Shown here piece by piece: positions 11,912 to 46,800 of a DNA stretch of 64,000 nucleotides. Position 1 is the stretch's first letter; the number at the start of each line of letters is the position of its first letter. The notes beneath the pieces were generated by a model that saw nothing but the letters and a program-made list of their open reading frames with translations, did no database searches and had not been told where the DNA came from. Source of the DNA: an uncultured Bacilli bacterium (GTDB taxonomy: Bacteria > Bacillota_I > Bacilli_A > RF39 > UBA660); contig CANPXO010000001.1 in NCBI GenBank assembly GCA_947586205.1, forward strand, positions 4,164 to 68,163. The letters run 5' to 3'. The position numbers were made by a program, and so were the translations under genes.

Positions 11912-11923
11912 ACTCTTTCTCCT

Positions 11924-14441: not shown

Positions 14442-14524
14442 GTTTGTGGGAAGCATTTTAGTTGCTGAGTGTCTACCACTTTCTCCTCTCTATAAAATCA
14501 ATTTTTTAAGGAGAAAGGGGTGTG

Positions 14525-14726: not shown

Positions 14727-14895
14727 GTATACAGTATATCAAAAATAAAATAAAAATTCAAGTGGCAAAAAATAATATTTATGCTTGCTAATATTATAAA
14801 TGTATGTTAATATGTTTGTAGGAAGCATTTTAGTTGCTGAGTGTCTACCACTTTCTCCTCTCTATAACCAAAATTTTTAAGGAGAAAGGGGCGTG

Positions 14896-14997
14896 ATGTA
14901 TATGAGTCAAAACAGGAAATTTATACTTCAAATATTTGATTACATTATCACTATTTTATGGCAAGTAATATTTATTCTTTCCATAATGAAAAAATGA
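14896..14997 (+). CDS. Small hydrophobic peptide D' (33 aa, MYMSQNRKFILQIFDYIITILWQVIFILSIMKK); putative type I toxin-like
   Basis: Promoter TTGCTA (14785-14790), 17-nt spacer, TAATAT (14808-14813). Leader anti-SD and SD as in C'. Confidence 0.45.
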   Translation: MYMSQNRKFILQIFDYIITILWQVIFILSIMKK

Positions 14998-15100
14998 CAC
15001 TTACAAGTAAATTGTAAATGTCTCCAATCTTTTTCGGTAGGCATTCAGCATAGCTAAACTGAAATGCTTCCTTTTTTATTTTATGAAGTTTCCTTCATCT
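14986..15100 (-). ncRNA. Putative cis-antisense RNA D'
   Basis: Minus-strand promoter TTGATT (RC at 15130-15135), 17-nt spacer, TATACT (RC at 15107-15112). Terminator hairpin RC at 14996-15023 followed by a U-run. Confidence 0.4.
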
Positions 15101-15153
15101 GTATACAGTATAACAAAAATAAGATAAAAAATCAAGTAGGAAAATATAATATT

Positions 15154-22334: not shown

Positions 22335-22554
22335 AAGCATCTCCCTTTCAAACTCATTTTTATAACGTGATTACATAATATTATATGAAAAATGTCAAGT
22401 ACAAGTGTAAAGCCAAAATGTAAAGCTTGACTCCACAAAGAAATGAAATTTTCATATATCATATTTCATTTACTCTTAGAATACTCCACAAATAAAAAAG
22501 AGCTCTTTTAAAATTTAAACGAACCCTTTATTTAATTTATACAATTTCTATGAA

Positions 22555-24420
22555 TTAAAAATCATGTTGATTTACGTGTTTGTTTGGTCCACAAACCCAG
22601 TAATAGTAATCGTTTCCATCCTTGTCTTTCGCCCACTCTATGTCACAACCATAATTTTCCCTGTATTTTTTTTCTAATTCAAGAACTGCATCATTACTTA
22701 AATCTAATTCATTAGCAGTAGGAACTTTAGTACTATTAGCATTTGCTAAAACAATTTCAAAACTTCTAGTCTTATTATTTCCTAATACTGTACCTTTTAA
22801 ATAACATATATAACCAGCGCCATTAATACCAATATCAATCATTACTGTATCAGTAGCAACAGTATCACCATAATAAGTAGAAAGCCATTCATTAAATTGT
22901 TTATTTGAAACAGCTACACGATAGAACTTAATATTTGAACCCATACCATTATAAGCCTCGCCTTTTAAACTACTCTCTGTAAGAGATGTAGCACTTGCAA
23001 GGAATCTTAATTTTTTAACTAATTCTAATTCAATAACTCCTACTGTTCTTTTTCCACTAAATTGCATAGTCCAACCTGCCATACCTTTAATGCTACTTGC
23101 GTCTGGAATAGTCCAAAGAGATGGAGACATTGATCTAAATAAAGATACTTGTTTAGCATTAACATTTGAGGTATTCGTATATGAATATAACACACCCTTA
23201 TCAGAACCATTATAATAAACAATTAATTCTGTTCCACTATTATTATCATACATTTTTGTCCATTGTTCCTTAACATTACGAACTGTTAAACTATTAGCTC
23301 CTGCAGTTTTCGTTACTGCATTTTTAATCGTTGTAACCGCATCTTCACTTGGACTAGGATCTTCAACAACGCTAGGAGTACTATTAGACTGAGTAACACT
23401 TGGTGTTTGTTCTTCAACAATTGGTTTTGTTTCCGCTACACTCTGAGTTGTTGCTTTTTTTGAAGCTTCTGCCTCTGCAGCTTTACGAGCTTGTTCTGCT
23501 GCTTGTCTTTCAGCTTCCTCTTTAGCTAATCTTTCTTTTTCAAGTCTTCTTGCTTCTGCAACAGCTTCTCTTTCTGCTGTTGCTTTTTGAGCTTCTTCTT
23601 GAGCTTTTTTGGCTTCTTCTGCCTTACGATTTTCTTCTTCTTGAGCAAGTCTTGCTTCTTCTGCTTTTCTATTAGCCTCTTCTGCTAATCTTTTTGCTTC
23701 TTCAACATTTTTAGCTTCTTCAGCAGCTTTTCTTGCTTCCTCAAGTTTTTGAGCCTCTTCTTCTGCTACCTTTCTTGCTTCCTCAGCCTTACGAGCTTCC
23801 TCTTCAGCTTTTTTTGCAGCTTCTACTCTTTGAGCCTCTTCTTCGGCAGCTTTTCTTACTTCTTCCGCTTTACGTGCTTGTTCTTCAGCAACCTTTTTAG
23901 CTTCCTCAGCTTTTTGAGCTTCTTCCTCTGCAAGTTTTTTAGCTGCTTCTGCCTTTTGAGCAGCTTCGTCAGCTAATCTTTTTTCTTCAGCCGCTCTTTC
24001 TGCTTCCGATTCAGCAGCTTTTACTTTTTCTTCAGCTGCTTTTCTTTCTTCATCTGTTTTTGCAGATTTTACTTGTTCTTCAGCTTTCTTTTTAGCATCC
24101 TCGGCTTTTTTAACTGTTTCTTCTGCATTTTTTACAGCATTTTTAGCAGTTTCTAAATTTTTAACCGCGGTTTCTTTCGCTTCTGTTTTCTTATTGAATT
24201 CTTCATTCGCTGCATCAACTTTTGCATTAGCTTCACGAACATCTTCTTCTGCTTCTATTAAAGCATTTGATTTTTCAACTGGAAGAACTTCATTCTCATA
24301 AAAGCCATAAAGATTATTGTGATTCGCATTTAAAAATTGACTTGCTCCAAGAGCACACGCTCCAACAGCAGCAGTACCTATAACAATTCCACCAATCATT
24401 TTTACTGATAACTTTTTCAT
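22555..24420 (-). CDS. Secreted EAK-rich charged-helix protein, paralog 2, with a larger, different C-terminal domain
   Basis: The N-terminal 330 aa are near-identical to paralog 1. The C-terminal ~290 aa are unrelated to paralog 1. The start was adjusted from a TTG to the ATG with a GAGGGAGAGAG RBS. Confidence 0.6.
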   Translation of the reverse strand: MKKLSVKMIGGIVIGTAAVGACALGASQFLNANHNNLYGFYENEVLPVEKSNALIEAEEDVREANAKVDAANEEFNKKTEAKETAVKNLETAKNAVKNAEETVKKAEDAKKKAEEQVKSAKTDEERKAAEEKVKAAESEAERAAEEKRLADEAAQKAEAAKKLAEEEAQKAEEAKKVAEEQARKAEEVRKAAEEEAQRVEAAKKAEEEARKAEEARKVAEEEAQKLEEARKAAEEAKNVEEAKRLAEEANRKAEEARLAQEEENRKAEEAKKAQEEAQKATAEREAVAEARRLEKERLAKEEAERQAAEQARKAAEAEASKKATTQSVAETKPIVEEQTPSVTQSNSTPSVVEDPSPSEDAVTTIKNAVTKTAGANSLTVRNVKEQWTKMYDNNSGTELIVYYNGSDKGVLYSYTNTSNVNAKQVSLFRSMSPSLWTIPDASSIKGMAGWTMQFSGKRTVGVIELELVKKLRFLASATSLTESSLKGEAYNGMGSNIKFYRVAVSNKQFNEWLSTYYGDTVATDTVMIDIGINGAGYICYLKGTVLGNNKTRSFEIVLANANSTKVPTANELDLSNDAVLELEKKYRENYGCDIEWAKDKDGNDYYYWVCGPNKHVNQHDF

Positions 24421-32568: not shown

Positions 32569-35054
32569 CGACTGAACCCCTTTTCTTGATTAATATTTTG
32601 AGCAGATACATAAAATGTTATATTATCATCTACTTGTTTAGAATTTGTTTCATATAATCCATCCGCAACAGAACTAAGTGAAGTATTTAAAGAAACTGCA
32701 GCACTTAACACTTGATAGCCATCATTGACATATCTTTTAATTTCTTCATTTGATTTAGCAATAACTGTCTTACTTGAATCATTTGGATTTATAAATGCCA
32801 CTTTTAAGACCACCATTTCGGTATCTGGAGAATAATTTCCTTTAAAAACTCTTTGACTTCCAGTACTTACATTCACCGTATTAACGTCTTTTTCTACTAA
32901 AAAATCTGTATAAGTATTGGCCCCAAAGTCAATGGTAACTACATCCCCAATATGTGGTCCCGTATAAGAATCATAAAATTCCTCTTCTGGTAGTGATTGC
33001 ATTGGTTCAGATATTTCTTCTACTTCTTCTTTTACATTCTCTTGTTCTAGTTGATGATTTATTTCACTAAGCTTTTGGTGCATCGATAACATTTTTTCAA
33101 TTTGTTCATTTGCAAGAGTTGGAGTTCCAACAGTTTCTACTTTAATCGTAGATTCATTTGGATTCTTATTTGAATTTTTAATATTTGAGAACCATTTTAT
33201 GCCACCTGCTCCAATCATCGCCAAAGAAGTAATACCAATAGCAGCATACATTACATTTCTTTTATTCACTCTTTCCCATAAATCATGAGCTTTTTCCCGA
33301 ATCACTCGGAATGGTTTTCCTCCTACTGTCTTTTTCCCTTTTAAATTTTCTATTTCTTTTTCTAATTCTTCTTTTTCATGTGTTAAATGTTCAATTTGTT
33401 CTTGAGACTTTTCATGAACTAATTTTAATTCTTCATTTTCTTTTAAAAGTCTTTCTTTTTCCACTTTTAAATCTTCAATCTGTTTTTCTAATTCTTCTTT
33501 TTCATTTAAAGTTTTTACATTCTCTTCTTGAGGTACTTCTTTTTCAACTGGGCTAACTGGCAAGACTACAGGAAATGGAGAAGTGACAAAATCATCAATA
33601 GTTAAATCATCTTTATCTTCAGGTATTTCAAAAATATTTGTATACTGATTATTTTCTTCTAAAGATTCCTCTAAAGCAAAAGGTAAATCAGAATTAGGAA
33701 TAAAGTTTTCTACTTGAAATAGATCTTTTGCATGATTATTAACAAAATGATAGATATTTAAAAGATTTTCTTTTTCTTCTGGATGATTCATATAGTCTTG
33801 TTTTTTCTTTTCATAAAGATAAATAGCTTCAAAAAAGGAAGATAACTTACTATAGAACTCGACATCTAAAGCACTGATATTTAATTTTTCAAATTCAGTT
33901 TGATAATCTCTTAAGTTGTCTAAAAGAATTTCTTTTTCATTCTCAAATTCTTCTGGTTTAGTAATTTCTAATTCTCCCATATAATTTCCATTACTAAGCA
34001 AACCCTCATACAAATTTTGATAAGGATATTCTTCTTCTTGAGTAGACTCTCTTGCTTTCTGAATATAGTAAAGCATCTTTTTAAAGTTTTCAATTTTTTC
34101 ATCAAAATAACTAAATGTTTTTAAAACCCATTTATTAGTTAAAAAAGTATCTAAATGATCTAACCAAGAATCATATTCTAATGTTTTATCATCTAAATCA
34201 AGTTGTGAAAGTTGTTCTCCCAAAGAATAAGTAAGTCCATTATCATATCCATCAGAATAAACCGTCGAAACATCTTCTTCATTTTGAGTTGGATTTTCTA
34301 CAGACTCATCCTTTCTTTCTATTATTTTAGGTAACGTATTTTCTTGATGATAAAACTGATATAAATACTTTTCGTATTCTTCATTTGTTTCTCCACCCAC
34401 ACGCATTCTTGGAATTGCATCTTTCTCTTCTAATAAATCTGTAACCCCATAAGTAGCTTGATACAATATATTTAATTTATCTTGAATACTATGTAAAATA
34501 GCAATTGTTTCTTCCAATTTCGAAACATTGGTTTTTCCATCCAAAACCATCTTTTTCTTTTGTTGATCATAAACTGTGATTAACTGAATCATTCTAGCAT
34601 ATTCTACAGCTTTTTCATCATTCAAATAATTTCTGCCATTCACGTTGGCTTGATTTTTTGATCTTATTTGTTTTTCAATTTTTGCTAACTGTTTATAGTA
34701 ACTATTTCTTTCTTGTTTCCAATCTTCTAGTTCCTTTAGTAAATCTCTCTTTTCTTGTTCATCTGTTGTTTCTTCTATTTTTTTGATTAAATCTTCTATA
34801 ATTTCTTTGATGTCTTCAAGGTCAGATAAAAAGAGTAACAAATTCTCTTGGATAGCAACTCTTCCTTCCATTTTGGCATTTTCTTTTCCACAAATTCCTA
34901 AACAAAACTGTACAAAATGAACATCTTTTTCTTTTAATTTCTTAATGAGCTCATTATTCTTAATAACCTTGAATGACTCCATTCCATAATTCAAATTTCC
35001 ATCCATTTTTTCCACCCACTCATCTAATATAAAGATTATAACACATATTATCAC
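32565..35054 (-). CDS. Large coiled-coil protein with one TM helix and a ~230-aa extracellular C-terminal domain (hypothetical)
   Basis: About 560 aa of heptad-rich, E/K-rich sequence, then a TM helix (AIGITSLAMIGAGGI), then a C-terminal domain. The start is uncertain. Confidence 0.4.
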   Translation of the reverse strand: MIICVIIFILDEWVEKMDGNLNYGMESFKVIKNNELIKKLKEKDVHFVQFCLGICGKENAKMEGRVAIQENLLLFLSDLEDIKEIIEDLIKKIEETTDEQEKRDLLKELEDWKQERNSYYKQLAKIEKQIRSKNQANVNGRNYLNDEKAVEYARMIQLITVYDQQKKKMVLDGKTNVSKLEETIAILHSIQDKLNILYQATYGVTDLLEEKDAIPRMRVGGETNEEYEKYLYQFYHQENTLPKIIERKDESVENPTQNEEDVSTVYSDGYDNGLTYSLGEQLSQLDLDDKTLEYDSWLDHLDTFLTNKWVLKTFSYFDEKIENFKKMLYYIQKARESTQEEEYPYQNLYEGLLSNGNYMGELEITKPEEFENEKEILLDNLRDYQTEFEKLNISALDVEFYSKLSSFFEAIYLYEKKKQDYMNHPEEKENLLNIYHFVNNHAKDLFQVENFIPNSDLPFALEESLEENNQYTNIFEIPEDKDDLTIDDFVTSPFPVVLPVSPVEKEVPQEENVKTLNEKEELEKQIEDLKVEKERLLKENEELKLVHEKSQEQIEHLTHEKEELEKEIENLKGKKTVGGKPFRVIREKAHDLWERVNKRNVMYAAIGITSLAMIGAGGIKWFSNIKNSNKNPNESTIKVETVGTPTLANEQIEKMLSMHQKLSEINHQLEQENVKEEVEEISEPMQSLPEEEFYDSYTGPHIGDVVTIDFGANTYTDFLVEKDVNTVNVSTGSQRVFKGNYSPDTEMVVLKVAFINPNDSSKTVIAKSNEEIKRYVNDGYQVLSAAVSLNTSLSSVADGLYETNSKQVDDNITFYVSAQNINQEKGFSR

Positions 35055-35210
35055 AAAAAAAAAGGAGATTTTTTAATCTCCTAAACGCATTCTACGTAAG
35101 TGTCAGATAAACAACGAATCGCACATACACAATTTAAATCAATGGTAAAGAATGAATTCGTTGCTACATATGGATTCAAGCTTGTCGGGTCTGGATTAGC
35201 TTCTAGAACT
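35028..35210. repeat. 183-bp direct repeat, copy 1 (identical to 35556..35738), holding a promoterless 3' remnant of the CotZ-like gene plus its terminator
   Basis: It matches copy 2 base-for-base, including the hairpin GGAGATTTTTTAATCTCC and A9/T9 run. The remnant encodes ..VLEANPDPTSLNPYVATNSFFTIDLNCVCAIRCLSDTYVECV*, preceded by in-frame stops. Confidence 0.7.
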
Positions 35211-35213
35211 CCC
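35088..35213 (-). pseudogene. 3' gene fragment (last ~41 codons) of a CotY/CotZ-family coat protein gene
   Basis: Identical to the 3' end of 35608..36036 up to residue L102. Upstream in-frame TGA codons mean there is no start. Confidence 0.55.
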
Positions 35214-35589
35214 GGAGTTTGACAGTTGGTGATTCATCAAATGTTTGTTTAGCCCTTTTGTAATAAGGCTTTTCTTATGTCAAGTTCTTGCATTTTTTTT
35301 GTTGTACATTCGTTGTACTTTGAATTTTTTTAGATTTTTATCTTTTATTAAAATCAATATTGTGATATAATTATCGCATAAAGTAAAGGGATATATAAAA
35401 TATCATCTAAAGTCGCATAATTATTGATACAATTAATATAAAGTATTTCAAAAAAATTAATTTTTTTTAAAATTAGCAATAATGTACAACATTAAAAAAA
35501 CGTGTTAGCCCTTTAGTTACTTGGGCTGGCTCATTTTTACTGTCAAAGTCAAGATATAAAGATTATAACACATATTATCACAAAAAAAA

Positions 35590-35607
35590 AGGAGATTTTT
35601 TAATCTC
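35590..35607 (-). terminator. Strong intrinsic terminator of the CotZ-like gene
   Basis: GGAGAUUAAAAAAUCUCC followed by U9 on the minus strand, immediately after the stop codon. Confidence 0.65.
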
Positions 35608-36036
35608 CTAAACGCATTCTACGTAAGTGTCAGATAAACAACGAATCGCACATACACAATTTAAATCAATGGTAAAGAATGAATTCGTTGCTACATATGG
35701 ATTCAAGCTTGTCGGGTCTGGATTAGCTTCTAGAACTCGGCAAGTACAGCAACAATTATCTACTTTTTCTACTCTAAATACGGATGATGTTGTTCCACCT
35801 ACGACTGGGTCTTTACTTGTTGGCATACTAAATGCAACTCCATTCGATCCACAAGTGTAAAGCTCAATTGGTCTAGTATTACAAATAAGGCAATTAGGTC
35901 CTCCACCAAGAACTGGTCTATCGCATGAATCCAAACATGAATCTGGACAAGCATTTTGTTGAAGTACTAAAATGACATTCAAAATTTCGGAAATGCAAGT
36001 TGAGCAGTTTGAATTACATGTTTCATTATTACACAT
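35608..36036 (-). CDS. cotZ: Cysteine-rich spore coat protein of the CotY/CotZ/ExsY family
   Basis: 142 aa with 23 Cys. The motifs FRVEKV, DNCCCTC and FFTIDLNCVCAIRCLSD align with B. subtilis CotY (FRVEKL, CDCCA, CIEVDLGCFCAIQCLSP). Confidence 0.65.
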   Translation of the reverse strand: MCNNETCNSNCSTCISEILNVILVLQQNACPDSCLDSCDRPVLGGGPNCLICNTRPIELYTCGSNGVAFSMPTSKDPVVGGTTSSVFRVEKVDNCCCTCRVLEANPDPTSLNPYVATNSFFTIDLNCVCAIRCLSDTYVECV

Positions 36037-36141
36037 ACATATTCCCCTTTCCTATATTCTCATTAATAATTTATGTGAATTTTCAAAATTAGTGCAATTC
36101 TCTAAAAAATAGTGTATAATTTATTTAAGAGGGTGATCAAT

Positions 36142-36459
36142 GTGAGCGATTGGATTATTTATTTAATCATTATACTCGTCTTACTTATTATTTCTTTAGT
36201 TGTTGCCAAACTCATGAAGAAAGATTTTCATTTAGAAGCGAATAAACTCCTTGGTTATTTAGGTGGAAAAGACAACATCATTAATGCGGAATGTAACTTA
36301 TCTCGTTTTAAAGTGATTTTAAAAGATGTTTCGATTGTCGACAAAGATGGGATTACAAAGTTAGGTGCCAAAGGAATTGTGGAAATTGATAATCAATTAA
36401 AAATCATTTTTGGAAGAGATGCCAAACAATTAAAGAAATATATTGATGAATTACTATAG
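36142..36459 (+). CDS. Membrane-anchored orphan PTS EIIB (glucose-family) domain protein
   Basis: An N-terminal TM helix, then LGYLGGKDNIINAECNLSRFKVILKD..VDKDGITKLGAKGIV. This matches the EIIB signature LGG.ENI....HC.TRLR...D, including the phospho-Cys. The start was set at the GTG with an AAGAGGGTGA RBS. A TATAAT -10 lies at 36115-36120. Confidence 0.55.
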   Translation: MSDWIIYLIIILVLLIISLVVAKLMKKDFHLEANKLLGYLGGKDNIINAECNLSRFKVILKDVSIVDKDGITKLGAKGIVEIDNQLKIIFGRDAKQLKKYIDELL

Positions 36460-36464
36460 AATTT

Positions 36465-36755
36465 CTATAGTTTTTTTATGTCTAGAATACTTGGTATCGA
36501 TATTTTTTCTCCATCCATTGTCAGTAAATAACTTCCACTTTTTCCCACAATTTCAGTTTCAAACACATCACTTTTTGTTGTAATCTCTACTTTACTTTTA
36601 TAAACAAAATCTTTACTTCCAAAAATCGAATCAATTTCTTTTAAAATATTTTTGGTTCCTCCTCGATCTTCTAATAACTTACTATAAAACATTTCTTTAT
36701 TATTATGTAAATCTTTTTCCATTGGATTTGCATAAACTTTTGGTAATTCTTTCAA
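36465..36755 (-). CDS. Hypothetical small protein (96 aa)
   Basis: The ORF looks coding. No family was recognised. Confidence 0.3.
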   Translation of the reverse strand: MKELPKVYANPMEKDLHNNKEMFYSKLLEDRGGTKNILKEIDSIFGSKDFVYKSKVEITTKSDVFETEIVGKSGSYLLTMDGEKISIPSILDIKKL

Positions 36756-36789
36756 AATTCTTCACCTCACTCTTATTTTATGATTAAAA

Positions 36790-37941
36790 GTGAAAATCAT
36801 GAAGCATACTAAAAACATGAAAAAGAAAATGATAGGAAAAATTTTATTTTTTTGGATCCCTTTTCTAATGCTTTTAAGTATTAGTCTTTTACTCATGTAT
36901 CATGCTCGTTTTATCACGAATACCTATGCTCATCATTTTGAAAAACAACTTCTATGGTTTAGTATTGGTTTTCTTTTATTATTTTTATTTAAATGGATTC
37001 CTATTAAAAAGATATTTTCCCTAAGTATCCCCATCTACCTCATCAATCTTCTTTTCCTTATTTTAGTATTAATCATTGGAACCAATGTAAATGGGGCAAA
37101 AGCATGGATAGACTTTCATTATTTTAGTTTTCAACCAAGTGAACTCATGAAGTTTTCTCTTGCTTTATTCTTAGCCGATTTTTGTTCTCATAAAAAATGT
37201 CAAAACTATAAAGAAGAATTTATTCTTTTATTAGAAGTATTTATTCTCACCATTATTCCCTCTATTTTAGTTTTTCTAGAACCAGACACAGGATCCATAC
37301 TATTCTATTTTTGTATAGCACTCGCCATTCTTTGGAACAAAGTTCATAAAAGATGGTTTGTCATCATAGGCCTTCTTGCTATTTCTTTATTTGGAACATT
37401 CTTTTATTTATTCTTTTTTCAAAAAGATTTGTTAATCTCTTTCATTGGAACAAGTATTTTCTATCGTGTCGATCGTCTTTTAAATCTAGGAAGTGGAATG
37501 CAAATTGAAAATGCTTTAATTGCTTTAGGAAGTGCCCCATTCATGAGATGGAATCTCACTGAAACAGGAATCTATATTCCTGAAGCTCCTACTGATTTTG
37601 TTTTTGCTTTAACATCTAATGTCTTTGGAATTATAGGAAATCTTTTCATTATTTTCTTATTTTTGATACTAGACTTTTATTTACTAACCTTTATGAAAAA
37701 AGAAAAAGATCAAACCAAAAAACTATTTTCTATTTCTTTTTTAAGCATCTTTATTTCCAGTCAAATCATCAGTATTGCCATGAATCTCGGATTATTTCCA
37801 ATCATCGGTATTCCTTTACCATTTGTCAGTTATGGTGGTTCTTCTACCATCGTCTTATTCTTATTCTTAAGCATTTTCTTTTCTAAAAATAGAAAAGGAA
37901 AAAAGAAAAAACAAGTTACTATTGAAGTTTTAGTTATATAA
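36790..37941 (+). CDS. SEDS-family protein (FtsW/RodA/SpoVE)
   Basis: A polytopic membrane protein with the conserved PLPFVSYGGSS motif. The sporulation-gene neighbourhood suggests a SpoVE-like role. Confidence 0.7.
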   Translation: MKIMKHTKNMKKKMIGKILFFWIPFLMLLSISLLLMYHARFITNTYAHHFEKQLLWFSIGFLLLFLFKWIPIKKIFSLSIPIYLINLLFLILVLIIGTNVNGAKAWIDFHYFSFQPSELMKFSLALFLADFCSHKKCQNYKEEFILLLEVFILTIIPSILVFLEPDTGSILFYFCIALAILWNKVHKRWFVIIGLLAISLFGTFFYLFFFQKDLLISFIGTSIFYRVDRLLNLGSGMQIENALIALGSAPFMRWNLTETGIYIPEAPTDFVFALTSNVFGIIGNLFIIFLFLILDFYLLTFMKKEKDQTKKLFSISFLSIFISSQIISIAMNLGLFPIIGIPLPFVSYGGSSTIVLFLFLSIFFSKNRKGKKKKQVTIEVLVI

Positions 37942-37964
37942 AAAATGTAGACATAACATCTACA

Positions 37965-38189
37965 TTAATATGGTTGATAATAACTATAAGAATAATTTCC
38001 ATAAGGGGCATTTGGATAAGGTCGAGGTCCATATCCAGGTCCAGGTCCATATGGTGCAACATTATAAATTGGTCTAGGTCTTGTAAGTCCAACAGCAGCT
38101 CCACCAATTAAAGCTCCTCCTAAAAAAGGTAATAAAAATTGACGATCTCCAACAAATTGATTATTCATAGGATATTGATAATTATACAT
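37965..38189 (-). CDS. Small Gly/Pro/Tyr-rich protein (spore coat-like low-complexity protein)
   Basis: 74 aa with one hydrophobic segment, then a GPGPGYGPRPYPNAPYGNYSYSYYQPY tail. GAGAGGAG RBS present. Confidence 0.4.
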   Translation of the reverse strand: MYNYQYPMNNQFVGDRQFLLPFLGGALIGGAAVGLTRPRPIYNVAPYGPGPGYGPRPYPNAPYGNYSYSYYQPY

Positions 38190-38250
38190 ACATTCTACTC
38201 CTCTCAGTATAAAATATGTAAAAACTTACAAAGCTTAAGTTACAAACGCC

Positions 38251-38610
38251 TAGTTATTGAACACCATTGGTCTCCATTGGTCAGCTCTGTCTCCATTGGA
38301 CAGCTCTGGTCACCATTGAACACCTCTGAACACTATTGAACACCTCTGAACACTATTGAACACCTCTGGTCACCATTGAACACCTTTGGTCACCATTGAA
38401 CACCTTTGAACTCCATTGAACACCTCTGGTCACCATTGAACACCTCTGGTCACCATTGAACACCTTTGGTCACCATTGAACACCTTTGAACTCCATTGAA
38501 CACCTCTGGTCTCCATTGAACACCTCTGGTCACCATTGAACACCTTTGAACTCCATTGAACACCTCTGGTCACCATTGAACACCTTTGAACACTATCGAA
38601 CACCTCTAAA
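38251..38610. repeat. Tandem array of ~18 copies of a 20-bp unit (CCATTGAACACCTCTGGTCA and variants)
   Basis: Read directly from the sequence: perfect 20-bp periodicity, with alternating TGAACA and TGGTCA/TGAACT hexamers every 10 bp. It is non-coding, since the period is not a multiple of 3 and stops are present. It lies between the stop of 38618..40066 and the start of 37965..38189. Confidence 0.85.
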
Positions 38611-38617
38611 CAGCAAT

Positions 38618-40066
38618 TTATTTAATTATATATTTTCCATAACCATCATTTTTAGTAGTACCTGTCCAAACAATAAGTTTCTTATCAATTAATCTATTTA
38701 ATAAAGCTACGGCTGTTGTTTTTCTTCTTCCTATTAATTCACTTATTTCTTCTCTAGTCGCCCCATTGTTATTAATGATGTACTCTATTGCTTGCTGTTC
38801 AGGATAACTTAATTCATCCCATACATTTTTAACACGTTCATTATTCACAGCCTTGTTTACCTTTGAACGTTTTTCAATATTATTTTCTAAAATTAATAAT
38901 ACTGAATTTCTATCAGGTTCTGAATATATAGGTTGTTCCAAATGAAAACGTTTCATTTCTTGATATATTCTTTTAACCCCTTCATTTAATTCTCTAACAA
39001 TCCCTAATTCTACTAATGCTCTTGCAATTTGTGGATTTCTTGAATATCTTTTTACTTGCATTGTATCTAAAGTAACAAAACCACCAAGCCTTCCTGGAGA
39101 AGATATTTCCATTCTACTATTATAGATTTTAACAATAATTTGTTCTCCAATATTAGAATAATCTCGATGAGTGACAGCATTGACAATTCCTTCATACCAA
39201 GCGAATTCTGGATATTCCGGATTTTTTTCAAAAACACCGTCCTGATTTAAATAACTAAATTCACGTAATTGAGAATTAATAAATTCTTTGGCTTCAGTTA
39301 AAATCTTATAAAGATTTTTATCAAACGTTTTTTCCTTAACAACATTCATGGAAGTTCCTGTTTGAAAATCATCACCTTCAAATTTAATAACTCTTAAACG
39401 AGCACAAGGAAAATAAACAGAAGGATTTTTACCAAAAAGTAACATACCCGCATTTGTAAATTTAACTTCTCCTTTTGCTTCAACTAAATATCCTCGAGCT
39501 TGTAATACAGAAATATCATCATTATCTGTTTCAAGTTTTTTCTTATATAAATCTAAAACTTCATGATCGATATCATCTAAGCTTGAATTCCAAACAACTT
39601 GATTTTCAAAATTCATCTCATTTCTGTCATATTCTAAGCTTTTAATTTGATCATGTGTTAATTTTATAGAAGAGTCCCCCTGACGAATATAGACTTCATC
39701 TTTTAAATTTCTTATAACTCGATTCATAGATGGTTCTATATGAAACAAAAGTATTTTGTCATCCTCCCCTTTTACATTTTTGACATCTACGATTTCACAA
39801 TTATAGACTGGAGTAGGTTTTAAATAAGAACCAACAATTTTTTGGGCATCATTAAGTTTATTCATCCCATAATGATTAAATCCTTCAATATCTCCATTAT
39901 CATGAATACCCAATGCTAAAATACCCCCTTGTGCATTTGCAAATGCCATGACTTCATTAGCAAATGTTTTTAAATCAATTTTCGCAGACTTTCTATCAAA
40001 ATATAAGTTCTCTGGTTCTCTTAAATATTCTAAAGTAACCTTTTTATTTATCTTAGATAAATTCAT
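38618..40066 (-). CDS. Schlafen-like AlbA_2 domain protein with a C-terminal winged-helix HTH (often annotated RecG-C-terminal-like/putative transcriptional regulator)
   Basis: N-terminal LYFDRKSAKIDLKTFANEVMAFANAQGGILALGI (AlbA_2 signature). C-terminal ..GATREEISELIGRRKTTAVALLNRLIDKKLIV (HTH). Confidence 0.6.
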   Translation of the reverse strand: MNLSKINKKVTLEYLREPENLYFDRKSAKIDLKTFANEVMAFANAQGGILALGIHDNGDIEGFNHYGMNKLNDAQKIVGSYLKPTPVYNCEIVDVKNVKGEDDKILLFHIEPSMNRVIRNLKDEVYIRQGDSSIKLTHDQIKSLEYDRNEMNFENQVVWNSSLDDIDHEVLDLYKKKLETDNDDISVLQARGYLVEAKGEVKFTNAGMLLFGKNPSVYFPCARLRVIKFEGDDFQTGTSMNVVKEKTFDKNLYKILTEAKEFINSQLREFSYLNQDGVFEKNPEYPEFAWYEGIVNAVTHRDYSNIGEQIIVKIYNSRMEISSPGRLGGFVTLDTMQVKRYSRNPQIARALVELGIVRELNEGVKRIYQEMKRFHLEQPIYSEPDRNSVLLILENNIEKRSKVNKAVNNERVKNVWDELSYPEQQAIEYIINNNGATREEISELIGRRKTTAVALLNRLIDKKLIVWTGTTKNDGYGKYIIK

Positions 40067-40165
40067 TTTTCATCACCTCAACAACATAATACCACATATA
40101 TTTTCATGTGTAAATATCACTATGATATGCTTTACTTTCAAAAAAAATAATGAACTTTCCATTCA

Positions 40166-40672
40166 TTATTTTGAAGTACTCTTCTTTTTGGTTGACTTAC
40201 TTGATTTTTTAGTCGTTCCGGTTTTTCCTGTTTTTTTCTTAGATTTAGTAGTACTCTTCTTTTCTTCTTTATTTGTTTCTTCTTCTAATTCATCTAAGAA
40301 TTCATGAAGTAATGTACTTGCACTTTCTTTCACTTCTTTAGCCGCTCTTTCAACAACAGGAGCTCCCTTTTCCTTAGCAAGTTTCATTAAATCATCACAT
40401 TTATCTTTTACAAAATCTACTTTTTCTTCTGCTACTTCTTTTATTGTCACTGCATCCATTTGAGACAATTCTTTCTTTATTTCATTCACTTTCTTTAAAA
40501 GATTTTCTTTCGTCTCTTCTATATCAATATCTTTGATTGTATCTACTAATAAAGAAAAAGATTTTTTTAAATCATTTCTTGTCTCATTACCCTCTTTAGG
40601 CGCAAGTAAAATTCCGAGTCCAACCCCTACAAAAGTTCCTGTTAAAAAAGAACGGAATTTACTTTGACTCAT
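40166..40672 (-). CDS. ytxH: YtxH-like protein (PF12732-like)
   Basis: N-terminal FLTGTFVGVGLGILLAPKEGNETRNDL followed by a long helical region, then a K/S/T-rich tail. Confidence 0.55.
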   Translation of the reverse strand: MSQSKFRSFLTGTFVGVGLGILLAPKEGNETRNDLKKSFSLLVDTIKDIDIEETKENLLKKVNEIKKELSQMDAVTIKEVAEEKVDFVKDKCDDLMKLAKEKGAPVVERAAKEVKESASTLLHEFLDELEEETNKEEKKSTTKSKKKTGKTGTTKKSSKSTKKKSTSK

Positions 40673-40974
40673 TATTCCTCATCCTTTTTTGAAATTACTT
40701 TTTTACTTTTCTTTTTAGATGAGAATAGATTTGCAACGGTAGCAGTAATTCCTTCCACAACTTTATCTGTGACTAAGACAATCTTATCTGTTGTGGTATC
40801 AATAATATGAAATAAACCATCCAACGCTCTTACTTTTTCATTCACATTATCCACAACTTTTTCTACTTTATCTAATGCAATTAAACATTTAATAGCAAGT
40901 ACAATTCCTATAATTAAGACAATAATTAATAATACATAAATCACAATTGGTAAAAAATCTAATAAAAAACTCAT
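40672..40974 (-). CDS. ytxG: DUF948-family membrane protein (YtxG-like)
   Basis: A 100-aa protein with an N-terminal TM helix and then a coiled-coil region. It is directly upstream of the ytxH-like gene, as in B. subtilis ytxGHJ. Confidence 0.5.
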   Translation of the reverse strand: MSFLLDFLPIVIYVLLIIVLIIGIVLAIKCLIALDKVEKVVDNVNEKVRALDGLFHIIDTTTDKIVLVTDKVVEGITATVANLFSSKKKSKKVISKKDEE

Positions 40975-40976
40975 TC

Positions 40977-41906
40977 TTATTCCTCCTCCTTATTTTCATA
41001 CATAGAATCAATTAAGTGATATAAATCATTTTCGAGTGTCTCATCATCTTCTATTTTTTCTTCTTCTGTTTTGTCATGATATTCATCTAAAACATCCATA
41101 CTTAATTTTTCTTCTAATTCTGGATCATTTTGAATCACTACATCATCAGAATCTATCGTATCAAAAAGTTCTTTTTCTTCTGGTTCTACTTCTTTTTCAA
41201 CTGGTACATCAATGGTATCAAAAGACGACCCTTCTAAAAGTTCATCAATGCTTTTTTCTTTTGGTTTTTCTTGAACAGTCTTTTCTTCTTTTTCATGAAC
41301 CACTTCTAATTGTCTTGTTTGCATTAATGTTCTTTCAATATCATCTTCTAAAGTACCAAATGCTTTTTTTCTTACATCGTCTACATCAAATGTCTTTTTT
41401 TCTTCTTTTTTTACAATGATATCTTCTTTTTTATAATTCTTATCAAGAACCCCATATACTGGTGAAATGACTGGTGAAGGTTTAAACTTTCTTGATTCAA
41501 TTCCTGTTGATTTTGATTCATAAGCTCTTCCTTTAATTTCTTCTGCTTTATTCTTTTTTAATTTAGGCTTTTCAGAATCAAATAGATTAAATCCCATTGT
41601 CTTTTTAGGTGGTTCTTCAGACTGTTTAGGTTCAGGCTCTGGTTCAAAAGTATGTTTCATTTCTTCAAACTCTTGGTCATCAAACATTGGAAAATCAAAT
41701 GTTTTCTCAGCCTTAAATAAATCTCGATCACCAGTTAAATCTTCATCTAAATTGCTTTCAAAGACATTTTTCTTTCTTTCTACTTTCTTCTCTTCAACAA
41801 CAGGAGGAGAGACTTTCTTTGGTGGTTCCTCAATAGGAACTTCCACTTCTTCTTCCTCAAATAACACTGATTTTAACTTATTAAACAATCCCATGATTAT
41901 CCTCAC
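40977..41906 (-). CDS. Acidic Glu-rich low-complexity protein (hypothetical)
   Basis: 309 aa, very E/D/K-rich, with no TM segment. Confidence 0.3.
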   Translation of the reverse strand: MRIIMGLFNKLKSVLFEEEEVEVPIEEPPKKVSPPVVEEKKVERKKNVFESNLDEDLTGDRDLFKAEKTFDFPMFDDQEFEEMKHTFEPEPEPKQSEEPPKKTMGFNLFDSEKPKLKKNKAEEIKGRAYESKSTGIESRKFKPSPVISPVYGVLDKNYKKEDIIVKKEEKKTFDVDDVRKKAFGTLEDDIERTLMQTRQLEVVHEKEEKTVQEKPKEKSIDELLEGSSFDTIDVPVEKEVEPEEKELFDTIDSDDVVIQNDPELEEKLSMDVLDEYHDKTEEEKIEDDETLENDLYHLIDSMYENKEEE

Positions 41907-41915
41907 TCTCTTATG

Positions 41916-42569
41916 CTAACGAATAAAGTCTGGATCTACGGTACTATCAGTTTCTTCGTAAGTTCCATATTCTTCTACAATTTGTAAGTATCCACTTTCT
42001 GTGTCGGCACTTTCAAAAATGTTATGTTCCACTTCATTCGCTTCTAACACATTCTCACCCATCAAGCTTGTTAATACTTCATCTTGATAAGTAATAGAAG
42101 AAAGAATTGACATTGAATAGGCAATCGCACTTTCGATATCTTCTTTTTCTACTATCACTTCTATTTTAGCATAATTATACATGATTTCAACAAAATATTT
42201 TTCATTTTCTGTTTTTTTTATTTCAATATAACCAAAATGATTTGCTTTTTCTAATTTTTTAGAATAAAAAACATCTTCTTTTTCTTCATATGTTTTTTGA
42301 ATTCGATTATAATAACTTACTCGATCCACATACATGTAATATAGGTCATCATTAACACTTAATATTTCATTGCTTCCTTCATGATTTACAAGTTTAATTC
42401 CCTTTGGTAAATAGAATTTATAACCAGCTCGGTAAGTATTTGCAATATCAGCTTGAGAATTCATTGTCATAGATAATATATTTTCATAACTATCACTTTC
42501 AATACTACTACATCCACATGTTAAAAACAGGATAAAAAAGAATAAAAAAAATTTTTTCATCAATATCAC
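41916..42569 (-). CDS. Hypothetical lipoprotein
   Basis: A signal peptide with lipobox LTCGCSS. Confidence 0.45.
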   Translation of the reverse strand: MILMKKFFLFFFILFLTCGCSSIESDSYENILSMTMNSQADIANTYRAGYKFYLPKGIKLVNHEGSNEILSVNDDLYYMYVDRVSYYNRIQKTYEEKEDVFYSKKLEKANHFGYIEIKKTENEKYFVEIMYNYAKIEVIVEKEDIESAIAYSMSILSSITYQDEVLTSLMGENVLEANEVEHNIFESADTESGYLQIVEEYGTYEETDSTVDPDFIR

Positions 42570-42647
42570 CTATTCATATCAATAGTATACCAAAAAAATA
42601 AAAGATTGGAAAGAAGAAAAAATGGAAAAATGAATTCTAAATTTATC

Positions 42648-42665
42648 GAAAACAAAAAAGGCTTT
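42648..42665 (-). terminator. Intrinsic terminator of the Rpn gene
   Basis: AGGCUUAAAAAGCCU followed by UUUUUU immediately after the stop. Confidence 0.55.
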
Positions 42666-43475
42666 TTAAGCCTCTTTTAATTTTTCAATGTCCTCGATAG
42701 ACAAACCTGTGACTTCAGAAATATAAGCCACATCTGACTTTTCAAGCATCGATTTGGCAATTTCAATGTTTCTTTCTTCGCGTCCTTCAGTATGTTCTGA
42801 ATTCAGCATCATTCGCATGTCTTCTTCATCACTTGCAAATCTCACAAAATCTTCATTTTGATTTAACTCTATGACTTTGTCTCTGAACTTATCCATGAAT
42901 TCATCTTCCCCTCTTGGAAGTGCATTTAATTCAGCTTCATTCATATCAAATATGGATAAATACCGAAATAGGGTTCTTGCATCTTCATCATTTTCATTAT
43001 ACCACTTCCGACCCATCTCGTCCATAGAAAATTCCAAAACAGATACATTATCAAGGTACTTTTTTTGGGAAGAGGACTGAAAACTGTGATCTTCCATAAG
43101 GGTATCTGAAGCTTTGCCATAGGTGAAATCCACGAGTAAATAATATTTTTTGCTTTTATATTCCTCGCCTTTTTTAGCATCTTTGTTAATAGTAACCGAA
43201 AAGAAATTAAAGTTCCTGAAATGTAACCAATCAGTATATTTAAAATTCATTTCCATTTGCACAACGATGCTTTCATCTACTTCCAAAATCAAATCAGCAG
43301 TTTTGCCTTTTTCATAGGCATATCTTTTGATAAGCTCTGGGTTACGAATTTTAATGTTTTCCACTTTTTGATGTAAGATAAGTTCAAGTAGTCGTTTGGT
43401 TAAATCTAAATTTTCTTCATCACCAAAGACTGCTTTAAAAACTTTGTCGTAACGAGCACTTAGAAATTTTTTCAT
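42666..43475 (-). CDS. Rpn-family (YhgA-like, PD-(D/E)XK, transposase_31) recombination-promoting nuclease
   Basis: N-terminal ..DKVFKAVFGDEEN..LLELIL..., a catalytic D..E.Q.E-like core, and a C-terminal ..ISEVTGLSIEDIEKLKEA tail. AGGAGG RBS present. Confidence 0.65.
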   Translation of the reverse strand: MKKFLSARYDKVFKAVFGDEENLDLTKRLLELILHQKVENIKIRNPELIKRYAYEKGKTADLILEVDESIVVQMEMNFKYTDWLHFRNFNFFSVTINKDAKKGEEYKSKKYYLLVDFTYGKASDTLMEDHSFQSSSQKKYLDNVSVLEFSMDEMGRKWYNENDEDARTLFRYLSIFDMNEAELNALPRGEDEFMDKFRDKVIELNQNEDFVRFASDEEDMRMMLNSEHTEGREERNIEIAKSMLEKSDVAYISEVTGLSIEDIEKLKEA

Positions 43476-43802
43476 TTAAGGTTTCCTCCTTTCGCCAACC
43501 ATTAAAGCAGAAAAAAGGAGGCTTTGCAAACGCCAAAAACGGGTAAAACCCTGCAGATTTTGAAAATCTGCTTAGCAAATTTTGAAAATTTGTAGCCATT
43601 TTGACCAAAAATGGGCAAAAATGTCTAATTTGGCCGTTTTTTTTGACAAGTTTTGTCGAATCCTGTCGAATGGTGTCAAAAACCAAGAAAATATTCACAT
43701 TAACGCACAAATTTATATGATTTTGTTGACTTTAAACTTATTTAATAATCAAGACAAAAAACGCCATTTTTGTCTGAATTATCAATTTTGATTTTATAAA
43801 CA

Positions 43803-43835
43803 AAAAAAGAACTTACGCATTTAAGCAATAAGTTC
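43803..43835 (-). terminator. Intrinsic terminator of the 1181-aa surface protein gene
   Basis: A perfect 9-bp stem AAGAACUUA...UAAGUUCUU followed by U7 on the minus strand. Confidence 0.6.
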
Positions 43836-43851
43836 TTTAAAAGTGTCAAGT

Positions 43852-46800
43852 TTATTCTGTTAAAGATGCAACAGCTTGAACTGTAATGTGTAAAACAATA
43901 ACACCTTTACCAGGAATAGCAAGTTTACGTGTAAGTGTTCTTGGCGCACTGTCTGGAGTAACAGCACCACCAGCTTCTACATATGGACTAAAGTAAGCAC
44001 CATAAGTTGCATCACTTTCACATTCAGTTACACCTATGCCAGTCTCATCTAATCTATAAATAGTTGTACCGCTTCCTTTTATTTCAGTGCCATCACTTAT
44101 ATGGAAATAAAATGCTGTATTATTCTGAGTATATTGAAGATTGATATCATATTCTCCATCAATTTCATGTCCGGCTGAATCTTTAGTTTTTTCAACCTTT
44201 ATTTTTGAAGTTTCAGCTTTATTTGTAGTAACTCCATTACTAGTATCTATTGTTAATTTTTTTGATTCAACACTATCACTAAATAATTTTACATCAAAAT
44301 TTTGTTCACCAATAGATACCAAAGAATTTGTACCAGGTAAAGCGGAAATATTCATATAGACAACAGATACTAAAATTTTATGATTTTCATCAATAGTCCA
44401 AATTGGAGCTTCTAGGAATGCACCTTTTCCAACACTAAATAAAGTCATTTGGTCTTTTTTATAAGAAATTCCATTAATAGTTAAAGTATTAGGTGTATCT
44501 GTACCTTTATATTCTCCAATTTCCATATAAAATGCTTGTTTTTCAGTATCATCAAATTTGTCATATGGAAGAATACATTGACTTCCCTCTTTTACACAGT
44601 CTTCATTAGCCTCATACTTATTATAGAATTGAGTATCGAATGCTGTTGATTCAGTTTGAATGTTACTTGTAGAATCTACTACAGTTTCAACATCTAGATT
44701 AATAGTATATACTAATTTACCATCTACAGCATTTTCATCAGTAACACCATCTGCTAAAGTTAATGTAACTTCAATTGAGCGACCTTTCAAAGCAGTGATA
44801 TTTCCATTACCAATAATTTTTTGATAATAATCAGTAATTGCTTTTTTAGTAGTAGCTTTAACTTGTTCATCAACTGCATTTAATTTAATAGAGGCAATTG
44901 TGTCTTTTTCATCAGCTGTTATATCATCAATAGAAACTTCACTATAAAACTTAGTTGCTAATAATGCTTCAAGTTGGTCCATCATACCAGTTCCTTCAAT
45001 TTCACTTAAAGAAGCTGTTGCATCACTTAATAAAATATTATATGTTGTAACTTTTCCATCTTCATTAGCTACTGGTACAAGTGTAAAGAAATCTTGACCA
45101 TTTATTTTACCCATTGCACTTCCAACACCAATTTCAGTATTAGCTGTAGCAGTAAGTTGAATAGTATATGTAGCTTCTCTACCAGCCTCATTAGTAACAT
45201 ATAAATTATCAGTAATTAATTTAATTGTTAATTCTGTTCCAGCTAAACCTTTTCCTTTAGTTTCATCCATAATTTCTTTAATAGCTTTAGTTAATTCTGA
45301 TGAATTAGTAATCTCCTCTGAATCATGATTTACATTATATGTAAAATCTTTATTATTAATAACAATTTTATCATATTTTTTAGATGCCAATAATGAATTA
45401 ATAAATTTAGCTAATGCTACATTATTACTAGCAGTCACATTATTCTCAAGTACAACATCAATTACTCCGTTAGCATAAGTTGCTTTTTCATAAGCAGAAT
45501 CTTTTGCTAACTCAGTTGCTAAGTTACTCATATCAACATCACTATTATGTGAAACTGTAAATTTAATCGTGTAAGAATTATGTCCACTAACATCTTTTAA
45601 AACATCTTTTAAATCAAATGTGATATTAAAATTCTTACCAGCAATATTAGCAGCTATAGGAGTTCGTTCATCACTAGAAGTCATCATAGTTGCTATTATT
45701 TGGTTAAATGCAGTTGTAATAGCACCACTTTCTTGATATGAAGTTGCACCTGCTGATGCATCACTACTTGTAAATTCATGTTTTCCATTTGTAGTTTGAT
45801 TATAAATAAATGAGATTTTATCAAAATCACCAGTGGTAATAGCCTTATATAAACCACCAGTAATACCAGTTGATTTAATATCTGTAATAGCATTAAATGA
45901 ATCTAGTTTAAGATTAATCGTTGCAGTTCCATCTTCATTATAGATTGCATCATAGAATTTATTATTTGTATTTTTTAAAGAACTAATAAATTCTCTTACT
46001 ACTTTTTCAGTATCAATTGCATATTCTAATTGACTTAAGTCAATTTCATATTCTTCAGATGATAGATAATCATTTTTATTACCATCAGCATCGATTTTGA
46101 TTTTTAAAGTATTGTCTGTTGATGCGTCATCTTTTAATTTTAATATTAATGTTAAAGTGCCATCAGTTAAATCAGAATATTTTCCATGGAATACTTTATC
46201 ATTAATTGTGTAAGTAATATCAATATCCTCAGTGACATATTTTGGTTTAACATTTAAAGTTATAAAATAACCTGTTGACTTTCCTTCACCAAAAGAATCC
46301 TTAGTTAAAGTTTGTTTAACTACTGTTCCAGTCATTTTTTTACCTGTTGCATCTAATGCATAAGTCTCTTTGGCATTTCTATGATATCCAAATCTTTCTT
46401 CATTATCTTTTTGATCTGCTTCTGGAATTTCATTTGTAAAAGCAGCTTCAGAAACTTCTTGAATAGTTGCTTTAGACCAATCGATGACATATTTAGTTGG
46501 CTCGTAAACCTCACCAGCACCATCTAAATCAACTTCAATTGTAATTTTTTTCTCTGTATCTTTTTCAGGATTTAAAGATGCTAAGAATTTTAATGTTGTT
46601 ACACCATCAGCAGTAAATCTATCTGTATTATCTGTGAAGCTTGCATAAGTAAATGTTTTCTCATTTAATCCAGTTATTTTAATAGTTGTATCATTGCGAT
46701 ACCCTGTAACTTTTAAATCAAATGCTAAATAATATCCGGTTTTTTCCTCTTCAGAGAATACGTTTTCATTAATTTCATTATCTATCTTAATTAAACCAGT

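Follow-up and report, generated by a model that had tools for sequence, protein, structure and literature searches.

What is a long run of short, helically phased repeats doing a few bases past the stop codon of a gene that appears to encode a nuclease? The question is raised by a 64,000-nucleotide (nt) stretch of DNA from an uncultured Bacilli bacterium (contig CANPXO010000001.1, positions 4,164 to 68,163), the whole of which is referred to here as the window. A preliminary description, made from the letters alone, had reported a tandem repeat at 38251-38610, between a gene for a protein with AlbA_2 and helix-turn-helix (HTH) domains and a small G/P/Y-rich gene. We found that the first of these genes, which encodes a prokaryotic Schlafen protein, and the array form a mobile, co-inherited module. 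Since most of ~100 relatives carry a similar array in the same place, the repeats are probably the Schlafen protein's own DNA landing pad. We slightly favour the reading that the array is the protein's cognate, helically phased docking site on double-stranded DNA, where capture in cis would hold the nuclease inactive or buffered.

Architecture of the array

Tandem Repeats Finder (TRF) placed the array at 38256..38607 (352 bases; period 20, 17.6 copies, 85% matches, 0 indels, score 452), in agreement with the earlier report, and gave ATTGAACACCTCTGGTCACC as the consensus of its 20-base-pair (bp) unit. Based on TRF, motif counts against shuffles, analysis of register and stops, and a map of the units, the putative docking array was delimited at 38256..38610 (no strand assigned). 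It consists of ~35 sub-units of 10 bp, i.e., 17.6 units of 20 bp, which read GGTGTTCAAT / GGTGACCAGA on the coding strand of the Schlafen gene. Exact TGNNCA hexamers number 28 (18 TGAACA, 9 TGGTCA and 1 TGGACA), and one 10-bp register holds 26 of them; ~35 sub-units are reached when the degenerate forms TGAACT, TGGTCT, CGAACA and TAAACA are included. The 10-bp sub-period noted in the preliminary description is real, although its count of ~36 TGNNCA hexamers was slightly generous. Nor is the array perfectly phased, as had been stated, since one base is missing near the gene-proximal end, where the step from 38278 to 38297 measures 19 bp.

The array is non-coding and was found only at this site in the window. 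The consensus 20-mer, with up to 3 mismatches, matched 12 times in the window and all 12 matches lay within the array (0 expected from shuffles), as did 24 of the 26 window matches to the 8-mer GGTGWYCA (3.0 expected). All six frames are interrupted by stops (3 to 8 per frame), the longest open run being 58 codons on the minus strand, seen as a 57-amino-acid (aa) by-product open reading frame (ORF) at 38430..38603. The G+C content is 45.7% compared with 30.9% for the window, the units run head to tail without spacers, and Rfam at its gathering threshold gave no family match anywhere in the window. The earlier characterization of a helically phased, non-coding array of protein-binding-type units, unable to encode protein and distinct from a clustered regularly interspaced short palindromic repeat (CRISPR) array, therefore holds. 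A two-unit pattern of 28 nt, degenerate or exact, had 0 matches in 185,579 species genomes, a metagenome collection and a viral collection; the unit sequence is specific to its lineage, and the collections scanned either lack the species or do not have it assembled. With the 20-mer confined to this site in the window and the two-unit pattern missing from the collections, the genome-wide minisatellite without positional association that the preliminary description had raised as an alternative fails.

On the minus strand, the order is a ytxH-like gene (40672..40166), the Schlafen gene (40066..38618), 7-10 nt, the array, ~65 nt, and a 74-aa gene (38189..37965), so the flanking genes had been correctly recognized, with an AlbA_2/HATPase_c_4/HTH gene on one side and the small G/P/Y-rich gene on the other. 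Thirteen metagenome contigs encode the small protein with not one residue changed, and most of them break off within the array. Near the unique flank, the strings of units vary between the metagenome samples that encode this identical protein: the AATAGTGTTC/AGAGGTGTTC pair is present in 2 copies in the window and in L001, L003 and L006 and in 3 copies in L002, L004 and L007, and L010 is without another sub-unit pair. Copy number and unit order thus differ between samples, which is the variation that the preliminary description had proposed to look for. Where L001 departs from the window in the interior of the array, the cause could lie in the assembly.

Pairing of gene and array in other genomes and viral contigs

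The Schlafen gene appears to have been horizontally transferred, since it has homologues that are 80-82% identical while host housekeeping genes are only ~30% identical to anything else in the species collection. One homologue of this 80-82% class (P0125) lies in four different upstream contexts, and each time a 10/20-bp array with a TGAACA core begins 6-15 nt past the stop codon; the P0125 arrays hold 4.5 to 5.8 units of 20 bp and that of P0123 (L046) holds 9.8. Streptococcus homologues (S. dysgalactiae and S. respiraculi; 42-44% identity) are followed by perfect 10-bp arrays of 20 copies of TAGGATACAG and 15.6 copies of TTTATTGTAG, the latter beginning at the base directly after the stop codon, and a Fusobacterium homologue has clusters of 11-bp repeats. 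Distant homologues (23-25% identity; a Streptococcus satellite, Mycoplasmopsis and a Lactobacillus iners plasmid) have 11-12-bp arrays upstream of the gene.

A profile-guided scan of metagenome contigs yielded 80 loci at 43-80% identity, 76 of them with at least 60 nt past the gene, and an array was called when a repeat with a TRF score of at least 50 started between -15 and +180 nt from the stop codon. Such an array was present in 55 of the 76 loci. The density of TRF repeats was 4.05 per kb just after the stop codon vs. 0.13 per kb elsewhere in these loci (31-fold enrichment), and the arrays started at a median of 4 nt after the stop codon and had a median length of 66 bp. Most of the loci lacking a TRF call show 2-3 units by eye. 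Viral contigs, scanned independently, had an array at the stop codon in 7 of 13 homologue loci, and copy number ranged from 5.5 to 22.9 among arrays paired with the same helix domain. The period past the stop codon was 10, 11, 20, 21 or 22 bp in 44 of 59 arrays, with a mean near the 10.5-bp helical repeat of DNA; repeats elsewhere in the homologue loci had periods that were mostly multiples of 3. The array is missing from both of the examined relatives without the helix domain. A generic variable number tandem repeat was considered and rejected: the array is polymorphic between samples, as such repeats are, yet its positional association with a homologous gene is 31-fold.

Genes past the array differ from locus to locus, occur in both orientations and are often convergent (UPF0158, RlmN, an XRE regulator, UvrB, integrases, HsdS, ORF6N and RhuM); since they are unrelated, control of a specific downstream gene was ruled out. 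The Schlafen homologues adjoin hsdS/hsdM (type I restriction-modification), integrases, RhuM and ORF6N, and also occur on plasmids, in prophages and in islands.

Several loci showed further variation in layout. In L097-L105, there is no array past the stop codon and three copies of CAGGGTTCGCGAGGGGTAGAG (22 bp) lie ~60-130 nt upstream of the gene start, from which we conclude that the array can switch sides of the gene. On the Lactobacillus iners plasmid pC0094A1 (L134), six clusters of three 11-bp TAATCGTGAGT units recur every 87 bp at 858-1405, before the distant homologue, with one further cluster past the gene (3109-3133) and a ParM/StbA gene nearby. L053 has two clusters of three CCTTTCAC units ~190 nt apart past the gene (3958-4200), and the last unit of the first cluster forms a terminator-like hairpin with an inverted copy. 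In L037-L045 (2700-3000, 4452-5850), an 80%-identical homologue stands at a conserved left boundary, marked by CCCCTGAAG plus a hairpin and a T run, in four upstream contexts; its promoter region carries two copies of the 11-bp repeat TTTAGGTACAA, and a DUF7695 gene and an ORF of 216-314 aa come next in 8 of 9 loci, L045 ending inside the array. The locus resembles the border of some larger element, mobile or defensive. Many contigs end inside arrays (including L056-L060, L094, L098, L110, L146 and L002-L010), and many homologue contigs barely exceed the length of the gene. Arrays break short-read assemblies, and the module is therefore likely to be under-assembled and under-represented in metagenome-assembled genomes (MAGs).

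The adjacent Schlafen protein

The gene at 38618..40066 (minus strand) encodes a 482-aa prokaryotic Schlafen with a ribonuclease (RNase)-type Slfn/AlbA_2 domain, a GHKL ATPase domain and a C-terminal winged helix, as judged from Pfam, the catalytic motif, an AlphaFold2 model and Foldseek. Pfam matched PF04326 (Schlafen, AlbA_2) at residues 19-136 (68.7 bits; cut-off 25.3) and PF13749 (GHKL-type ATPase) at residues 307-389 (60.2 bits; cut-off 26), and a weak match to MarR_2 at residues 425-465 (21.3 bits) fell below its cut-off of 27. E19-NLYF-D24-R-K26 fits the catalytic Ex4(E/D)xK motif; E19, R25 and K26 are invariant in both homologue alignments (A1 and A2), and the GHKL motif E292-x3-N296 and H300-R-D are likewise invariant in the homologue alignment. 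A profile search of the PDB with the protein matched SLFN12, SLFN14 and SLFN8. By its domains and motifs, the protein is assigned to the 'HisKinase-HTH' or 'Schlatpase-HTH' class of prokaryotic Schlafens, with an intact nuclease motif. PADLOC gave a domain-level match only, to the model of a Schlafen-fused prokaryotic Argonaute (pAgo).

The AlphaFold2 model (predicted local distance difference test 74, predicted template-modelling score 0.68) has helices at 421-433, 438-445 and 449-461 and a beta wing in its C-terminus (421-481). In Foldseek, the full-length model matched the uncharacterised structure 3lmm, its N-terminal part SLFN14 and SLFN5, and its C-terminal part the DNA complexes of MarR-family proteins (MepR, HpaR and SlyA). 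On the basis of the model, Foldseek and co-variation with the repeat unit, the C-terminal winged helix (residues ~405-482; 38621..38854, minus strand) is the proposed reader of the array. A consensus scan located a promoter-like site for the Schlafen gene at 40086..40114 on the minus strand (TTTACA, 17 nt, TATTAT, with an upstream TG; 10/12 matches), followed by a GAGGTG ribosome-binding site. The stop codon lies 7-10 nt from the array, and no terminator was found between the two in the window.

Double-stranded DNA and the C-terminal winged helix

Because the same motif is found in either orientation relative to the gene, the array is expected to act as double-stranded DNA rather than as RNA. 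L037 and L054 share the 22-mer AACTGAACACCACTGAACAGAA only with one of the two inverted relative to the gene, and the window unit matches that of L046, from the 80%-identical relatives, only when inverted. In L056, a terminator separates the stop codon from the array; the terminators mentioned here are single cases, as the scan across loci was too strict for A+T-rich DNA. The transcript of the array folded no better than shuffles (z = +0.9).

Conservation in the Schlafen family is lowest over the C-terminal 80 residues. Unit sequences differ between clades, and groups of repeat units are tracked by sequence groups of the recognition helix. An earlier co-variation test that binned pairs was weakly informative, and partial Mantel tests on 43 non-redundant proteins were used instead. 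Distance between units was correlated with distance between C-termini given the core (r = 0.38, p = 0.0005) but not with the core given the C-terminus (r = -0.09, p = 0.99). The preliminary description had put forward the AlbA_2-HTH protein as a candidate binder, and the proposal gains from these results, since gene and array travel together and the units co-vary with the winged helix. Unit cores were not enriched in the 150 nt upstream of the Schlafen gene, its own promoter region, which ruled out autoregulation via operator copies at that site.

Proposed mechanism and alternative explanations

Taken together, comparative data suggest that the Schlafen protein very likely binds the array; that binding sequesters or inactivates the protein is a more tentative proposition, drawn by analogy. 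We propose that each 10-bp sub-unit would bind one winged helix. As the sub-units are spaced one helical turn apart (10-11 bp across the family), many protomers would be aligned head to tail on one face of the DNA. Newly made Schlafen protein could be captured in cis beside its own gene, since the array begins a few bases past the stop codon and the winged helix is translated last. A potentially toxic nuclease would thereby be kept DNA-bound, inactive or buffered, until a signal releases it, and a DNA-held assembly of this kind would parallel the switch between inactive filament and active tetramer in the Schlafen-Argonaute system. In this genome, the cassette of gene and array would have been inserted between the ytxH-like operon and the spore-coat-like gene, and the array would then have grown to ~35 sub-units by slippage or unequal exchange. 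A bolder and rather doubtful version holds that the genomic array might be a DNA 'antitoxin' or scaffold, capturing a Schlafen tRNase in cis as an inactive, helically phased filament with release linked to infection. Competing DNA, DNA damage or degradation, a change in ATP or a phage factor could act as the trigger, the protein being freed or converted to an active oligomer, and the copy number of the array, tunable by slippage, would set the size of the stored pool.

Several observations weigh against the docking reading. The case for binding is comparative, and MarR-type winged helices usually bind palindromes as dimers, not long arrays of direct repeats. Shared ancestry is a partial confounder of the co-variation, and partial Mantel tests can err on the side of optimism, although the asymmetry of their results is informative despite phylogenetic bias. 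Arrays range from 2-3 units to ~35 and copy number varies among near-identical proteins, so most copies may be dispensable. Actinophage homologues lack an array, as do proteobacterial homologues with a different C-terminal helix domain. The window locus is no obvious defence island, the neighbours of the Schlafen gene being cell-envelope and sporulation genes. Finally, the bound state may instead serve DNA-templated activation, or act as a roadblock or insulator in transcription.

The last of these points leads to the explanation that competes most directly, namely that only 3-4 sites matter (as a roadblock, an insulator, an aid to termination or for downstream control) and that the rest is a neutral minisatellite driven by slippage. 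It, too, accepts that the array is bound and differs from the docking reading only in the purpose of the bound state. The short median length of the arrays (66 bp, many having 3-4 units), the spread in copy number (5.5 to 22.9) seen where the winged helix is the same and the varying order of units between samples of this species are all in keeping with it, and the window array is the largest seen. Yet several clades have independently come to carry long arrays (15-23 or more units) and there is no consistent downstream target, and we consider this explanation unlikely, albeit a serious one. A function in RNA is a good deal less probable. The array would then be a repeat in the 3' untranslated region that, as transcript, binds and inhibits the RNase domain, much as in type III antitoxins, where an endoribonuclease is coupled with a tandem-repeat RNA. 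The Slfn domain is an RNase, as reported in PMC13056530, and in the window no terminator separates stop codon and array. Against such a function stand the occurrence of the motif in either orientation, a period locked to the 10-11 nt of the DNA helical repeat, the terminator that precedes the array in L056, the position of the array upstream of the gene in some clades, the lack of RNA structure beyond that of shuffles and the co-variation of the units with the winged helix rather than with the Slfn core.

Two further possibilities go back to suggestions in the preliminary description. It appears very improbable that a mobile element uses the array as replication iterons or as a partition centromere and the protein as the initiator or as the adaptor that binds the centromere: the geometry of the array does resemble that of parC, tubC and iteron arrays, homologues do occur on plasmids and in prophages and the cassette is mobile, but no Rep, ParA, ParM or TubZ gene adjoins it, many loci are chromosomal and lie beside housekeeping genes such as uvrB and rlmN, the core of the protein is a Schlafen-GHKL with an intact nuclease motif, and the window cassette is a 1.8-kb insert without other element genes. 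An iteron or partition site in the strict sense was therefore set aside, there being no replication or partition genes and the setting being chromosomal. We give the least credence to the idea that the array regulates the small spore-coat-like gene from upstream or serves it as curved DNA. The array does lie ~40 nt upstream of that gene's promoter-like element, but orthologous small genes without an array have kept the same element, the array follows the Schlafen gene everywhere else, and it is predicted to be less curved than the window is on average; some local influence on the small gene is nevertheless conceivable. In a wedge model that is indicative only, the window array was straighter than 98% of random window segments, at odds with the strong intrinsic curvature suggested earlier, and other arrays varied widely. 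Intrinsic curvature is thus not a conserved property. Two likenesses to known binding sites were also dropped: the GAACA core recalls LexA or Cheo boxes, but the units are direct repeats and not the GAAC-N4-GTTC palindrome, and SpoIIID or GerE sites for the coat gene are set aside since the array travels with the Schlafen gene.

Relation to known systems

In the partition sites parC (bound by ParR; plasmids R1 and pSK41) and tubC (bound by TubR), phased direct repeats of ~10-12 or 20 bp are cooperatively coated by many copies of a small DNA-binding fold, a winged helix in the case of TubR. These sites are encoded beside the gene of their binder. The arrays described here are similar in being helically phased direct repeats, of 10/20 bp in the window and 10, 11, 20, 21 or 22 bp at homologous loci. 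They differ in having no motor NTPase partner (no such genes within 33000-44000), in lying 3' of the gene and not in its promoter, in a binder that carries nuclease and ATPase domains, and in their chromosomal or defence-island setting. Iterons of theta plasmids, like these arrays, are tandem sites for a winged-helix protein encoded alongside, and such sites can titrate the protein. In our case, however, we identified neither a Rep-family protein nor an AT-rich unwinding element nor DnaA boxes, and the sub-unit is 10-11 bp as against 17-22 bp. The array is flanked by syntenic chromosomal genes that are common to relatives without the insert, and no Rep-family initiator adjoins it.

Type III toxin-antitoxin systems (ToxIN) likewise couple an endoribonuclease gene to a tandem repeat, by which the enzyme is neutralised, and are selfish, mobile and linked to defence. 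ToxI repeats, however, are ~36 nt long, lie upstream of the toxin gene with an intervening terminator and form a structured RNA in a fixed orientation, whereas the units here measure 10-11 bp, lie past the gene in most loci, occur in either orientation and have no structure as RNA. RepA-CIS-oriR of plasmid R1 offers a precedent for a site just 3' of a gene that the gene's product can occupy in cis while still nascent. The site in R1 is not a long tandem array but a replication origin, which is reached via a transcription pause element.

Like the window protein, members of the HisKinase-HTH or Schlatpase-HTH class of prokaryotic Schlafens combine Slfn/AlbA_2 (PF04326), GHKL (PF13749) and a short C-terminal HTH and have an intact Ex4(E/D)xK motif; the new element here is the coupling of gene and array. 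Prokaryotic Schlafens have been shown to be anti-phage tRNases, the domains fused to them being viewed as probable sensors, Ex4(E/D)xK is the catalytic motif of prokaryotic and human Schlafen tRNases, and the HisKinase-HTH architecture, which makes up 19.2% of 5,930 prokaryotic Schlafens, was outside the architectures tested (Perez Taboada et al., Nat Microbiol 2026, PMC13056530), tRNA cleavage and phage protection having been shown for other Schlafen architectures (PMC13056530, PMC13552941, PMC13462974). A preprint describes a Schlafen-GHKL 'Schlatpase' set of 60,692 proteins, most of them without a further domain or with a short C-terminal HTH, and the RzAgo system, in which a nucleic-acid-guided sensor controls an inactive filament vs. 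an ATP-driven active tetramer (bioRxiv 10.64898/2026.05.29.728809). RzAgo has the Schlafen-GHKL supradomain in common with our protein, and ordered assembly of a similar kind could be templated by a tandem array of DNA sites. RzAgo, however, is triggered by target DNA and has guide RNA, carried on an Argonaute core, as its scaffold, whereas here the sensor would be a winged helix and the proposed scaffold is a genomic array.

The Schlafen family and its role in defence are already known, as are tandem arrays of sites beside the gene of their binder (iterons, parC and tubC). Literature searches, which had little coverage of subscription journals, found no published description of the pairing of a Schlafen-HTH gene with an array. 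Repeat arrays were not mentioned in the accessible text of recent Schlafen papers under a term search, which for the SLFN-pAgo preprint was made with 'tandem' only. The array gives a very common class of Schlafen-HTH proteins a concrete candidate DNA ligand. Constructs limited to the ORF would omit it, and toxicity or activity may be affected.

Insertion history and the small neighbouring gene

The nearest genome in the species collection (L013), an uncultured Bacilli MAG from rabbit gut, encodes an FtsW-like protein 96% identical to that of the window; the next relatives in that collection are only ~30% identical. In L013, the small gene is present and the Schlafen gene is absent, with the promoter-like DNA and the last three 10-bp sub-units kept. 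The window minus 38285..40087 aligns end to end with L013 7395-7600, and the missing 1.8-kb segment (no strand assigned) comprises the Schlafen gene and most of the array. Judged from this alignment, L013 looks like a deletion scar, and the Schlafen gene and array are best described as a recent 1.8-kb insertion in this lineage between the ytxH-like operon and the spore-coat-like gene. The insert carries no other element genes; transposon-like ends were ruled out, as no terminal inverted repeats were found around the indel. In this genome, the repeat is thus part of a mobile 1.8-kb cassette and not a regulator of a sporulation gene.

L013 also encodes a different, 563-aa paralogue (11103-12794, minus strand), Schlafen-GHKL-HTH-like by eye and absent from the window. 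Its 21-bp repeat of 9.7 copies (11331-11533) is coding, and the ENTPE[VI]LK heptads that it specifies occupy the stretch that separates the ATPase from the C-terminal helix domain. A gene of the PD-(D/E)XK_2 'transposase' family is located at 42666-43475 in the window, 2.6 kb from the Schlafen cassette, and since L013 holds different genes there, this neighbourhood has been rearranged between close relatives.

The 74-aa G/P/Y-rich gene (37965..38189, minus strand) is a neighbour of the array outside the module, ~65 nt beyond it, with 596 homologues and no Pfam family. In L029, L030 and L033, small proteins 72-74% identical to it are encoded in the order ytxH, ~85 nt, small gene, and the insert, Schlafen gene and array are all absent. 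A promoter-like element of the small gene, CATATTTTA (pattern CATAnnnTA; 38210..38218, minus strand), lies between the array and the gene and is found in the same place in L029, L033 and L034, where CATAnnnTA is kept just upstream of the ribosome-binding site without an array; L030 has kept it too. We take it to be a sigma-K type -10, by the Bacillus consensus. Since array-free orthologous loci keep this element, the small gene has its own promoter region. The idea that the array regulates the coat-like gene, advanced in the preliminary description, was accordingly abandoned, as orthologues without an array keep their promoter-like element and the gene past the array is unrelated across homologous loci and often convergent. 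The small G/P/Y-rich family is widespread and shares a conserved neighbourhood with CotZ-like and FtsW/RodA/SpoVE genes (window 37965-38189, 35608-36036), and its product is probably a late mother-cell protein of the spore coat or crust.

Other repeats in the window

Tandem modules of ~375 bp occur at 2462-3369 (2.4 copies) and 14406-15154 (2.0 copies), with no match in Rfam. Each module at 2462-3369 contains a 34-aa hydrophobic ORF (e.g., 2608-2712 and 2980-3084, minus strand), and these modules adjoin a 453-aa gene at 1100-2461 that is DnaB/DnaD-like by eye. The ~375-bp modules look like duplicated type I toxin-antitoxin-like modules. Finally, the region 21500-24060 holds dense nested tandem repeats with periods of 21, 42, 81 and 123, all multiples of three, that are pyrimidine-rich on the plus strand; these are probably long, repetitive coding repeats of the coiled-coil type on the minus strand.

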